From assembly GCA_000004985.1 (NCBI GenBank), contig GG739178.1: DNA of 4,609 bases. One strand, given 5' to 3'. Positions 314 to 4,609 of the stretch are shown here, one piece after another. The position numbers and the translations under genes were made by a program. How positions within the stretch are numbered: the first letter of the stretch is position 1; each line of letters starts with the position of its first letter. The notes beneath the pieces are model-generated. The model saw nothing but the letters and a program-made list of their open reading frames with translations, had not been told where the DNA came from and made no database searches. This stretch comes from Naegleria gruberi. Taxonomy: Eukaryota.

Positions 314-337
314 ATTTCTGAAAATCACCAAATGGGT
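314..337 (+). promoter_or_regulatory. Copy 1 of the 24-bp motif ATTTCTGAAAATCACCAAATGGGT, a candidate shared cis-element or short repeat family.
   Basis: It matches copy 2 (374..397) at 21 of 24 positions, 60 bp downstream in the same orientation. It also matches the inverted copy at 3305..3327. It sits 200-285 bp upstream of the paralog A start codon. Confidence 0.45.
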
Positions 338-373
338 ATGTTGTAAAATGTGCCCCGAAAAAGCTTTGCAAAT

Positions 374-397
374 ATTTCTGAATTTCACCAAATTGGT
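374..397 (+). promoter_or_regulatory. Copy 2 of the motif: ATTTCTGAATTTCACCAAATTGGT.
   Basis: It is a direct repeat of 314..337. The 13-nt core TCACCAAATTGGT is identical to the reverse complement of 3305..3317. Confidence 0.45.
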
Positions 398-466
398 GTT
401 CAGTTCGCAAGTTCTTCTTAGTTCATTCATTGCCTTAATATCCTTGTATCCAAAACAACAATTTTG

Positions 467-474
467 TATATAAA
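467..474 (+). promoter_or_regulatory. TATATAAA, a candidate TATA box for the plus-strand His-rich gene.
   Basis: It is a perfect TATATAAA, about 205 bp upstream of the ATG at 679. That distance is long, so it would imply a 5' leader of roughly 100-170 nt or an intron in the leader. Confidence 0.3.
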
Positions 475-678
475 TTTGTAGATATTTTCCAAGTCTCAAC
501 AGAAAAATCTTATTTTGAAACTTTCAAAATTAGAGAAATTAGAAGAGAGAAAGGCACAGGAACAGTAAACAACAAGATATTTACAAACCAGAGTCAACTT
601 GATGTTCAATGAACAATATTGGAAACGTATTTGAGAATGATTGTATAACTGATCAACAGCAATAATACAATTAAAAAA

Positions 679-846
679 ATGTCTGAACAACCAACTCAAC
701 CAGTCCAACCACAAGGTGAAGAACATAAGGAAAAGAGATGTGCCAAGCACGTTCATGGTGAAGAACACAAGCACGAAGGTGAACACGTTCATTGCAGCAA
801 GCACGTTCACGAACATGAAGTCAAGCCAGAATCTGATATGGAATAA
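679..846 (+). CDS. Small (55 aa) histidine-rich, Glu/Lys-rich protein, a putative metal-binding peptide. Translation: MSEQPTQPVQPQGEEHKEKRCAKHVHGEEHKHEGEHVHCSKHVHEHEVKPESDME.
   Basis: The ORF runs ATG(679) to TAA(844..846). It is the first ATG after an in-frame stop at 646..648. The context AAAAAAATGTCT is the classic highly-expressed fungal start context. Codon choice is strongly biased (CCA, CAA, GAA, AAG, GGT, GTT, CAC, TCT), unlike the antisense frame. The protein has 10 His in 55 residues, arranged as repeated KHVH / EEH / EH units, plus 2 Cys. AATAAA hexamers sit at the stop (842..847) and at 867..872. The six-frame track missed it because of its length. Confidence 0.6.
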   Translation: MSEQPTQPVQPQGEEHKEKRCAKHVHGEEHKHEGEHVHCSKHVHEHEVKPESDME

Positions 847-866
847 ATTTCATTACTATTAAGCTT

Positions 867-872
867 AATAAA
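867..872 (+). terminator. AATAAA polyadenylation-signal-like hexamer downstream of the His-rich CDS.
   Basis: AATAAA lies 21 nt after the TAA stop. A second AATAAA overlaps the stop itself (842..847). Confidence 0.3.
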
Positions 873-2492: not shown

Positions 2493-2539
2493 CTTATATA
2501 AATTTGCCTAAGATTCCATAGTGGAATAGAAGTACTTAC
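2493..2539 (-). other. Spliceosomal intron (47 nt, phase 1) in TGL paralog B. Donor is GTAAGT, acceptor is TATAAG|G.
   Basis: The minus-strand sequence reads GAAG|gtaagtacttctattccactatggaatcttaggcaaatttatataag|GTCTCTTAAAG. Unspliced read-through ends in GKYFYSTMES*, a stop inside the intron. Splicing at this acceptor restores the conserved motif GVCxxFAxLFxxLLKxAG. A 62-nt alternative with an acceptor at 2478 is also in frame but deletes LLKQ. Confidence 0.5.
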
Positions 2540-2936
2540 CTTCGAATAATCCAGCAAAACCAGTACAAACACAGGTCTTCAAGTAGAAAGCACAGAGAGC
2601 AAAATCATTATAGATCTTTTTTTCTTCTTCACTAAAGGATGGTCCCATAACTTCAGCATTATACTTTGGAAGAGTGTGATTCTTTCTATTAACCTTGTCA
2701 TAGGTAAGATTCAAGCAGAGCCAAACATAGACAGATCTGGCCTTTTCTTCAATATTATCAAAAGGGCTACAAAGATACTTGGAAGTTTCAGTGAGGGTTG
2801 GAATATCCTTTGGTGCATTTCTAGCATGAGCATCAGCAAGTTCGTAATTTCTCAAGGTTTTATAATATTCGGCATCAGAACTGAATGGGGCACCAGTAAG
2901 CGAGACCTTTTTGAATTTTGGAACAATGTCGGACAT
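2540..2936 (-). CDS. Exon 1 of TGL-domain protein paralog B (start codon at 2936..2934): a putative cysteine protease or transglutaminase-fold enzyme.
   Basis: The track ORF 2508..2936(-) starts MSDIVPKFKK…. It contains …EEKARSVYVWLCLNLTYD… (the TGL pre-core motif, AxxIYxWVxxNIxYD-like). It also contains …TCVCTGFAGLFEG (the GVCxxFAxLF catalytic-Cys motif). The start context is AAAAAAAAAATCAACAACAACAACC-ATG-TCC, with A at -3. The exon ends at a GTAAGT donor. Confidence 0.75.
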
Positions 2937-2961: not shown

Positions 2962-3304
2962 AAATTTTAATCCAAGAAATCAACCAAGGCATTAAGATTC
3001 TATTTAAGAACCATAGAAACATTTCAAAATCATCCAAAATTCTAGAAAGAAAATAACATGTCCATAGGGTTACATAATATGAAACAACTTGATGGAATAT
3101 CGTGGCAATCTGCAGAGTGTATAACATTTCTTGTGAGCGTGGAATTAAGGCCATGCAAAATTAACGTGTGAACTAGCTTTGAAACGTAAGGCTTCATTTC
3201 AAAAAGGTGTTTGGACAATAAAGATTAATTAATGCATGTGGTTGTTGATATGGACACAAAATTATTAAGGCAATGAAAGAACTTTGGAACAATAGGGAAA
3301 AAAA

Positions 3305-3327
3305 ACCAATTTGGTGAATCCAGAAAT
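3305..3327 (-). promoter_or_regulatory. Inverted copy 3 of the motif. The reverse complement is ATTTCTGGATTCACCAAATTGGT. It lies in the paralog B promoter.
   Basis: The plus strand reads ACCAATTTGGTGAATCCAGAAAT. Its reverse complement matches copy 2 (374..397) with one 1-nt deletion and one substitution, and the 13-nt core is identical. It sits about 370-390 bp upstream of the paralog B ATG (2936, minus strand). Confidence 0.45.
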
Positions 3328-3958
3328 ATATACTTCAGAGCTAATTTGGGGCTACAACAAACTCTCTATGGAGAACGCAGCAACATGTGGAATGGTTGAA
3401 GAGAGGCCTTTGTCTGTGTGTTATTTTGCATTAATATCACTATGACCACTATCAAAGAAGACAATTTAGGATATTGGCAAATTGATGGAATGTAAAGCAA
3501 AATATGTTGATAATGGTGATAGTAAATTCACACATTGTTTCCCGACTATCATCCACACTAAAAGTTCTACAATTAAAACTGATGGAAAATGTTGGTGGTG
3601 AATGATCCGATTATGATAATATGAAAAATAAATTCCAATTTCATGATTATCATCCTAAAACTAATAAAAATTACTATTATTACTACGAAGCAATTTATAT
3701 TTATAAAAAATCATCACATACTAGTAAACAACAATTCATGAGTATTTTTAATATTATGTGATAGATTTTTGAAACACAATTATTATTATTACTTTCAATA
3801 TCTTCGTATCTTCGTTGTCAAAATTCAAAAACAAAAAAATATTGAGGGCAATCATGTAAATACTCCTCGGAACCTCCAGTAATTTCAAAGGAGTAACATC
3901 ATTTAATTGCTGGATAAATTTCATCATCATCAACTAATCAAGTTTTCAAAATCAAAAA

Positions 3959-3964: not shown

Positions 3965-4609
3965 CTAATTAATTATAAAGATCACCAACAAGCTTGTAAT
4001 GAACACAAACAAGGCATGATAAACTCCCAAACCAGATACAAATGTTGATCCGGATACAACATATTGTTCACATCCTTTTCCAAAATATCCGACAGCACAG
4101 CTACAGGCACCAGAGACACAATTACCATGTCCATTACAAACAGTATTGTTGCTTGATGAAATTCCATTACAATATGTAATATCACACCAAGATCCTTCAG
4201 CATGGGAAGCACATGAACAAATGTTAGGTGCTGTACAATTACCATTTCCAGAGCAAACAACAGTTGAATTTGAGAAGAGAATTCCATTGCAAGTGTATTG
4301 CTCACAATTGGATCCACTATATCCTGCACGACATTCACAAGTATCGACATTGGTACAATTACCACGTGCTGAGCAAGAGTTTGGATTGTTATTGGCAACA
4401 CCAAAACAAGTACGAAGTTCACAATCACTTCCTGTATAACCAGATTTACATTCACAAACATTGAGTGATTTGCATGTACCATGTCTAGAACATACAGAGC
4501 TATTGTTATTGGCAATGCCAAAACATGACCATTGATTGTCGGCATTATTAGTATTATTAGTATTACCAGAATTGGTACCATTGTTACTATTATTAGTATT
4601 GTACTGTAT
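3965..4609 (-). CDS. 3' portion (214 codons plus stop) of a secreted or surface protein with four tandem EGF-like modules. It has an N-terminal Asn-rich low-complexity linker, EGF/tenascin-type 6-Cys repeats, and a C-terminal hydrophobic tail (likely a GPI-anchor signal or TM). The gene continues beyond the right edge.
   Basis: The reverse complement in frame 1 from 4609 gives IQYNTNNSNNGTNSGNTNNTNNADNQW-SCFGIANNNSSVCSRHGTCKSLNVCECKSGYTGSDCELRT-CFGVANNNPNSCSARGNCTNVDTCECRAGYSGSNCEQYT-CNGILFSNSTVVCSGNGNCTAPNICSCASHAEGSWCDITY-CNGISSSNNTVCNGHGNCVSGACSCAVGYFGKGCEQYV-VSGSTFVSGLGVYHALFVFITSLLVIFIIN*. It is open all the way to the window edge. There are four ~39-aa modules with the pattern C-x9-10-C-x4-5-C-x3-5-C-x-C-x8-C, ending in GY-x-G-x-x-C-E. 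Several N-x-S/T sequons are present. The final 19 residues are hydrophobic, preceded by a small-residue stretch (SGS), which is GPI-omega-like. The stop TAG is at 3967..3965. The track ORFs over this span are other frames or the antisense strand of the same DNA. Confidence 0.75.
   Translation of the reverse strand: MQYNTNNSNNGTNSGNTNNTNNADNQWSCFGIANNNSSVCSRHGTCKSLNVCECKSGYTGSDCELRTCFGVANNNPNSCSARGNCTNVDTCECRAGYSGSNCEQYTCNGILFSNSTVVCSGNGNCTAPNICSCASHAEGSWCDITYCNGISSSNNTVCNGHGNCVSGACSCAVGYFGKGCEQYVVSGSTFVSGLGVYHALFVFITSLLVIFIIN

Follow-up and report, generated by a model that had tools for sequence, protein, structure and literature searches.

The window, that is, the whole stretch of DNA that was analysed, is a small unplaced scaffold of 4609 bp (GC 33% overall and 25-29% in intergenic DNA), which holds a histidine-rich open reading frame of 55 aa (the mini-ORF) on the plus strand and, on the minus strand, two paralogous transglutaminase-like (TGL-like) genes and further reading frames (Table 1). 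A run of 1403 N at 935-2337 lies between the mini-ORF and the right-hand TGL-like paralogue and begins 88 nt 3' of the mini-ORF stop; because of this run (an assembly gap or a mask), the 3' portion of the right-hand TGL-like gene and whatever else is located there are not visible. Annotation of the window comprises a single protein, that of a 142-aa ORF at 2508-2936 (-), which is identical to XP_002668256.1 / NAEGRDRAFT_76833 and described as a 'predicted protein'. The flanking of the mini-ORF by TGL paralogues, part of the original prediction, was recovered, the left N-terminus (1-115, -) and the right-hand gene (2338-2936, -) being 58% identical over 26 aa (E 5e-9), and Pfam Transglut_core was detected in the right-hand gene at a sub-threshold score (18 bits vs 23, E 0.0035).

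Table 1. Features of the window, with coordinates counted from its first base.
Feature	Position	Strand	Details
24-nt motif ATTTCTGAAWWTCACCAAATKGGT	314..397	+	Two copies (314-337, 374-397), 282-365 nt 5' of the mini-ORF
Module of ~140 bp	352..492	+	Homologous to 3211-3352 (-), upstream of the right TGL-like gene
Antisense ORF, 106 aa	496..816	-	Overlaps the mini-ORF; codon score 0.07 bit/codon
A-rich start context of the mini-ORF	673..681	+	Six A, then ATG
Mini-ORF, 55 aa	679..846	+	Product MSEQPTQPVQPQGEEHKEKRCAKHVHGEEHKHEGEHVHCSKHVHEHEVKPESDME; from the ORF listing, re-derived
N-terminal Gln/Pro-rich segment MSEQPTQPVQPQ	679..714	+	CAACCA x3
Four in-phase 18-nt units	748..819	+	HxHxxx hexads HVHGEE, HKHEGE, HVHCSK, HVHEHE
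Stop of the mini-ORF and AATAAA hexamers	842..872	+	TAA 844-846; AATAAA at 842-847 and 867-872
Partial ORF, unannotated	3968-4609	-	Runs off the scaffold end; stop 3965-3967

Regarding the deposited NAEGRDRAFT_76833 model, it reads through a 47-nt GTAAGT...AG intron at 2493-2539, by which its last residues are encoded (KYFYSTMES). Splicing 2493-2539 out leaves the frame open for 52 further codons (GLLKQAGVPNVFRIAGKG...HEYNAIEIDDG) and continues the TGL-like core to the gap, and the model is, judging from this frame, truncated and mis-spliced. The partial ORF at the scaffold end is Asn-rich in its N-terminal part, carries EGF-like Cys repeats with a period of 117-120 nt and has a hydrophobic C-terminal segment; Pfam gave no match to it up to E 1, a homologue was not detected among 5.8 billion proteins, and the TGL-like gene had itself as the only match in the protein search. 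Every ORF of the scaffold is thus an orphan, so that the scaffold as a whole is either fast-evolving or poorly represented; it may be foreign or contaminant in origin, its assignment to N. gruberi being that of the deposited record. Rfam and tRNA scans of the window detected nothing, the match to Rfam ceN70 being a chance one (17.7 bits vs a cut-off of 65, E 0.78).

Reading frame and product of the mini-ORF

The mini-ORF is present as originally described, with 10 His among its 55 residues (18%) alongside 12 Glu (22%), 6 Lys and 2 Cys, and it was also correctly said to be unannotated, being without annotation and missing from the protein collection. The proposed A-rich start context and upstream in-frame stop were likewise found, as six A precede the ATG (AAAAAAATG, or in its wider form AAAAAAATGTCT at 673-684) and the nearest in-frame stop on the 5' side is a TAA at 646, 33 nt upstream. 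Further ATGs are located at 602, 609 and 637, the last of which is followed by the stop at 646, so that a translatable mRNA of the mini-ORF would probably begin within 638-678; the right-hand annotated TGL-like gene is arranged alike, its upstream ATGs coming as close as 56 nt to the start. AATAAA hexamers at and after the stop had also been claimed and lie at positions 842 and 867, the first overlapping the stop codon; the scaffold, with 3206 non-N bases, contains just 5 AATAAA, and the pair near the mini-ORF stop is a possible poly(A) signal.

The predicted product has a mass of 6.4 kDa, a calculated pI of 5.9 and a GRAVY of -1.79, and its calculated net charge passes from +2.6 at pH 5.5 to -5.6 at pH 7.0. 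On direct reading of the sequence the Gln/Pro-rich N-terminal segment is hydrophilic and contains no signal-peptide-like hydrophobic stretch. The predicted tryptic peptides include HVHGEEHK, HEGEHVHCSK, HVHEHEVKPESDME and SEQPTQPVQPQGEEHK. AlphaFold2, run without an alignment, gave a pLDDT of 47.9 and no secondary structure, which fits an intrinsically disordered product and a disordered binder, a single-sequence model being weak evidence.

The four hexads place His at residues 24/26, 30/32, 36/38 and 42/44/46, and five HxH occur in the product, including those of HVHEHE, an (HX)3. When aligned with one another, the four units are invariant at C1, A2 and C3 and at C7 and A8, which belong to the two His codons, and also at A17; at its third position the second His codon reads T/C/T/C across the units, a synonymous CAT/CAC variation, and the codons other than those for His have diverged between the units. 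Tandem Repeats Finder (TRF) detected zero tandem repeats in the mini-ORF DNA, which indicates that the hexad periodicity is kept at the protein level, and the pattern may weakly point to selection on the His positions. All spacings of the DNA repeats inside the mini-ORF are multiples of three (18, 36, 42 and 54 nt), the two Cys each stand in a C-[AS]-K-H-V-H context about 17-18 residues apart, and 10 His were reached in 0 of 200,000 shuffles of the mini-ORF's own bases. A repeat that had been reported to occur three times does so in a shorter form, the 8-mer CACGTTCA (748, 784 and 802); the 11-mer AAGCACGTTCA is exact only twice (745 and 799).

Coding-like statistics and searches for relatives

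The length of the mini-ORF alone is within chance: among mononucleotide shuffles, 24% of those of 116-934 and 40% of those of all intergenic DNA contain an ATG-ORF of 55 codons or more. Codon log-likelihood was scored against intergenic base frequencies using a table of 436 codons from the three other coding regions, and amounted to 0.61 bit/codon for the mini-ORF in its own frame, compared with 0.52-0.70 bit/codon for real CDS and -0.98 to 0.07 bit/codon for the other 17 intergenic ORFs with 25 aa or more; the shifted frames of the mini-ORF gave totals of -25.7 and -47.2 bits. Codon-position periodicity was likewise high (chi2 33.7, reached by 0 of 5000 shuffles), intergenic windows of equal length (n=1257) having a median of 5.0 and reaching at most 25.7 and CDS windows having a median of 33.2, these values applying to a sequence that is low-complexity and repetitive throughout, in which codon counts are not independent and in-phase repeats can inflate the periodicity. 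An island of elevated GC (0.43-0.50) from about 682 to 828 coincides with the mini-ORF, with 0.21-0.33 on either side. Lys is always encoded by AAG (P=0.0006 against intergenic base frequencies, which favour A) and the codons for Glu and Gln end in A throughout; the same combination of G-ending Lys and A-ending Glu and Gln codons is found in the CDS of the scaffold and does not reflect compositional drift. The mini-ORF therefore shares with protein-coding sequences an open frame with start and stop and CDS-like codon usage and periodicity.

The codons used are GAA (12/12), AAG (6/6), CAA (4/4), CCA (4/4) and GGT (3/3), with CAC for 6 of the 10 His and GTT/GTC in 5/5 cases, and the preferred codons of the scaffold's other coding regions include GAA (20/23), CAA (4/5) and CCA (12/16). 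AAG is used in 13/22 cases in those regions, so that the preference of the mini-ORF is nominally stronger (P=0.04); for GGT (P=0.09) and CAC (P=0.13) it is not. Of the proposal that the codons are highly optimised, the narrow preferred set stands, but this set is mostly the normal usage of the scaffold, with AAG alone nominally beyond it, and since it is largely ordinary for the scaffold's coding regions, the further suggestion of high expression is unsupported.

The antisense ORF that overlaps the mini-ORF was not found in the protein collection and, given its Phe/Leu/Val-rich translation and low codon score, is read as a shadow ORF and not as a gene; a sense frame composed of GAA, AAG, CAA, CCA and GGT is expected to cast such a shadow. 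It is longer than the sense mini-ORF and could mislead a length-based gene caller. On the same strand, a frame coming out of the gap (865-934) is open for 22 codons and ends in a stop at 865-867, 19 nt from the mini-ORF stop; if this frame were the C-terminus of the right TGL-like gene, the two genes could be convergent and nearly abutting, the open run itself not being significant.

Regarding relatives, the searches covered protein collections and metagenome, viral and prokaryote DNA, and unannotated copies may exist in other Naegleria genomes. The exact peptide is absent from a collection of 15 billion protein sequences, and a word-indexed search of 5.8 billion proteins gave no words common to any cluster representative. 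HMMER against 1.84 billion representatives returned no true relative; its single match (P0002, E 8e-6) was rejected as a translated tandem repeat, that is, a compositional match. Zero Pfam families were detected at E up to 1 and nothing in the PDB sequence search at E up to 10, NCBIfam yielded only the His-rich tail of UreE and no Hpn model, and pattern and tblastn scans of metagenome, viral and prokaryote contigs were all negative. Scanning with the TGL-like protein revealed no syntenic copy in metagenome or viral contigs, and the paralogous right-hand locus contains no copy of the mini-ORF. The hunt by tblastn and HMM for small His-rich relatives, which had been suggested together with the original prediction, thus came back empty in the protein collections and in metagenome, viral and prokaryote DNA. 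Literature searches on His-rich peptides, metallothionein, zinc or metal omics and unannotated small genes in Naegleria found nothing relevant, a metal-buffering peptide of such a kind was not found in the searched passages of Naegleria copper-homeostasis papers, and identifiers of the TGL-like neighbour do not occur in the supplementary data of the copper proteome study on N. gruberi. The idea of a real unannotated gene accordingly finds support in the intrinsic statistics (codon likelihood, periodicity, GC island, in-phase repeats and His codons) and none in the homologue searches, which were negative.

Upstream motif and shared module

The 24-nt motif upstream of the mini-ORF gave 2 matches against 0.01 expected, a number reached in 0 of 200 shuffles; its second copy (374-397) holds the perfect palindrome CACCAA-A-TTGGTG, and a third copy was detected at 3305-3327 (-). 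The two copies of the module share 100/144 identities by blastn (69%, E 1e-16) and face opposite ways with respect to the TGL-like genes: the left one points to the mini-ORF, the right one to its TGL-like gene. Both are located roughly equally far from the start of the respective TGL gene (about 240-420 nt). The core palindrome of the module is preceded by ATTTCTG. At the nucleotide level the module is better conserved than the coding DNA of the TGL paralogues (58%), which points to a selected cis-element or to recently moved sequence; a binding site for a dimeric transcription factor and a small segment that is mobile or inverted are both conceivable. From its position, the motif may be linked to the mini-ORF.

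Consensus sites of metal-responsive transcription include the MRE (TGCRCNC), the CuRE (TTTGCKCR) and the ZRE (ACCTTNAAGGT). No exact MRE, CuRE or ZRE was seen in the module when judged by eye against these consensus sequences. The sequence ACCAAATTGGT was considered as a ZRE and set aside, since its likeness to the yeast ZRE is limited to the outer ACC...GGT and a palindromic form of 11 bp, and no claim is made for it.

Candidate role and comparison with metal-binding systems

The explanation that we favour, tentatively and at somewhat below an even chance, is that the mini-ORF represents a real small gene, restricted to its lineage, whose product is a cytosolic peptide that binds divalent metals. 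From the observed frame, composition and coding-like statistics we infer transcription, translation, metal binding and a physiological role: translation appears reasonably probable, and metal handling as the role, a factor multiplied with that estimate, slightly better than even. The original description as a metal-buffering or metallochaperone peptide is based on the composition and the HxH spacing. Annotation would then have missed a 6.4-kDa, cytosolic, disordered His/Glu-rich peptide encoded at 679-846 (+) and expressed from an mRNA with a short 5' leader and a transcription start within 638-678. The core of this peptide would consist of the four HxHxxx hexads flanked by the two Cys in their C-[AS]-K-H-V-H context; each HxH pair, together with a neighbouring Glu or Cys, would form a site with bidentate imidazole ligation. 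A single chain could reversibly bind several ions of Zn(II), Ni(II), Cu or Co(II), the model predicting about 3-5 M(II) at micromolar affinities with a pH dependence around 6-6.5, and might serve as a low-affinity, high-capacity metal buffer or donor. Against this explanation speak the negative searches for relatives, the missing annotation, a length within chance, the repetitive low-complexity sequence, the absence of a copy from the right-hand locus and the location on a tiny gapped scaffold whose other ORFs are orphans too.

That the mini-ORF is instead untranslated low-complexity, purine-rich intergenic or 3'-flanking DNA, maybe transcribed only as the antisense 3' tail of a convergent right TGL-like gene, we regard as rather unlikely. 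Frames of at least 55 codons arise in 24-40% of shuffles, the sequence is built of short repeats and has neither homologue nor annotation nor a counterpart in the paralogous right-hand locus; the minus-strand frame from the gap, open to 865-867 (not significant), would moreover allow the right-hand gene to end about 20 nt from the mini-ORF. Untranslated DNA would, however, have to account for a codon likelihood, a periodicity and a GC island that match CDS and exceed those of all other intergenic ORFs or windows of the scaffold, for a third-base contrast between Lys (AAG) and Glu (GAA) that is not compositional, and for diverged repeat units whose conserved columns are His codons and which form no DNA-level tandem repeat by TRF.

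The same coding evidence would equally serve a real small protein with a role other than metal binding, such as a pH-switchable disordered peptide, a hydrophilin-like stress protein or a regulatory micro-peptide (IRONMAN/FEP-like), which we consider unlikely. The pI of 5.9, the charge swing between pH 5.5 (+2.6) and pH 7.0 (-5.6), the predicted disorder and the very hydrophilic composition (GRAVY -1.79) are all consistent with such a role, and the product presumably resembles hisactophilin, in its His titration, and the plant IRONMAN/FEP regulatory micro-peptides. Zero Pfam matches nevertheless argue against a hisactophilin-type beta-trefoil, Ser at residue 2 leaves no Gly for N-myristoylation, and the regular HxH pairs and CxKHVH fit chelation geometry better than mere titratable charge. 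Very improbable, finally, is that the mini-ORF is one exon, or a decayed remnant, of some larger gene, such as the part of a ZIP/CDF metal transporter gene that encodes its (HX)n loop, or of a gene that runs on into the gap at 935-2337: (HX)n runs are typical of transporter loops and the 1403-base gap starts 88 nt 3' of the stop, but in-frame TAA codons close the frame both 33 nt upstream and at its own end, the GC island stops at the stop codon, and HMMER against 1.84 billion proteins gave no transporter or other true match. Splicing into a larger gene is also unlikely because no donor-like GTRWG occurs within the mini-ORF, the one visible intron of the scaffold using GTAAGT.

If the gene is real, the window contains a gene that was missed in a model amoeboflagellate and whose product is a candidate for a His-based metal buffer, and provides a further example of a small, orphan, low-complexity gene overlooked by standard annotation and homology pipelines. 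If the gene is not real, the mini-ORF shows that in-phase low-complexity DNA can mimic coding statistics; with either outcome, the practical consequence is small until expression is demonstrated. A bolder version, which we consider a long shot, is that the product is the founding member of heterolobosean free-standing acidic (HxHxxx)n peptides, a eukaryotic functional analogue of bacterial Hpn that would be co-regulated with the TGL-like genes via the CACCAA-N-TTGGTG module. Were this co-regulation true, the module would be the first cis-element of a metal- or stress-responsive regulon described in Naegleria.

Among known His-rich and metal-binding systems, hisactophilin of Dictyostelium is a folded, N-myristoylated beta-trefoil of 118 aa, a His-rich, pH-sensing binder of actin and membranes. 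The mini-ORF product is likewise small, His-rich, from an amoeboid cell and endowed with a charge switch near physiological pH; it does not belong to this family, having 55 aa, predicted disorder, no Pfam match and Ser at position 2. Metallothioneins typically contain over 15% Cys in CxC or CxxC clusters. The proposed function, that of a small metal-buffering peptide, would be like theirs, but the product has no Pfam match and 2 Cys of 55 (3.6%) without CxC or CxxC clusters, and is not one of them; its ligands would be His and Glu and not thiolate. Residues 4-47 align to the His-rich end of NF009758, the C-terminal His-rich tail of UreE, at 12 bits against an NCBIfam curated cut-off of 237 (E 0.12), which is a compositional likeness only and does not make the product a UreE.

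The (HX)n His-rich cytosolic loops of the ZIP and CDF/ZnT zinc transporters bind Zn(II) transiently. The mini-ORF product shares with them the alternating His-X pattern, with five HxH, and differs from them as a free-standing peptide of 55 aa that is closed on both sides, has no transmembrane segments and carries its HxH in a regular hexad; Pfam and HMMER detected no transporter homology, so it is not counted among these loops.

Hpn and Hpn-2 (Hpn-like) of Helicobacter pylori are small cytosolic His-rich proteins that sequester and deliver nickel, and are characterised by a very high His content, by runs of consecutive His and by CC pairs; in Hpn-2, 16 His fall within the 34 residues of its His-rich part (PMC4671568). 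The mini-ORF product falls into the same size class (about 60-70 aa for Hpn and Hpn-2) and is, like them, predicted to be cytosolic, low-complexity, His-rich, poor in Cys, lineage-restricted and without a fold, and by analogy it would likely act as they do, with several weak imidazole sites buffering a divalent metal or passing it on. Unlike them, it has 18% His without an HH dipeptide, a poly-His run or a CC pair, its two Cys are isolated, it is strongly acidic (22% Glu) and eukaryotic, and HMMER and NCBIfam revealed no sequence relationship, so that it does not qualify as a homologue. We know of no nickel enzyme partner or NikR-type regulation for the mini-ORF product. By analogy, the product would thus work most like the Hpn-type peptides and the (HX)n loops of ZIP/CDF transporters while being a member of neither and, if real, would be an unrelated newcomer of an already known kind among the small His-rich metal-binding peptides.
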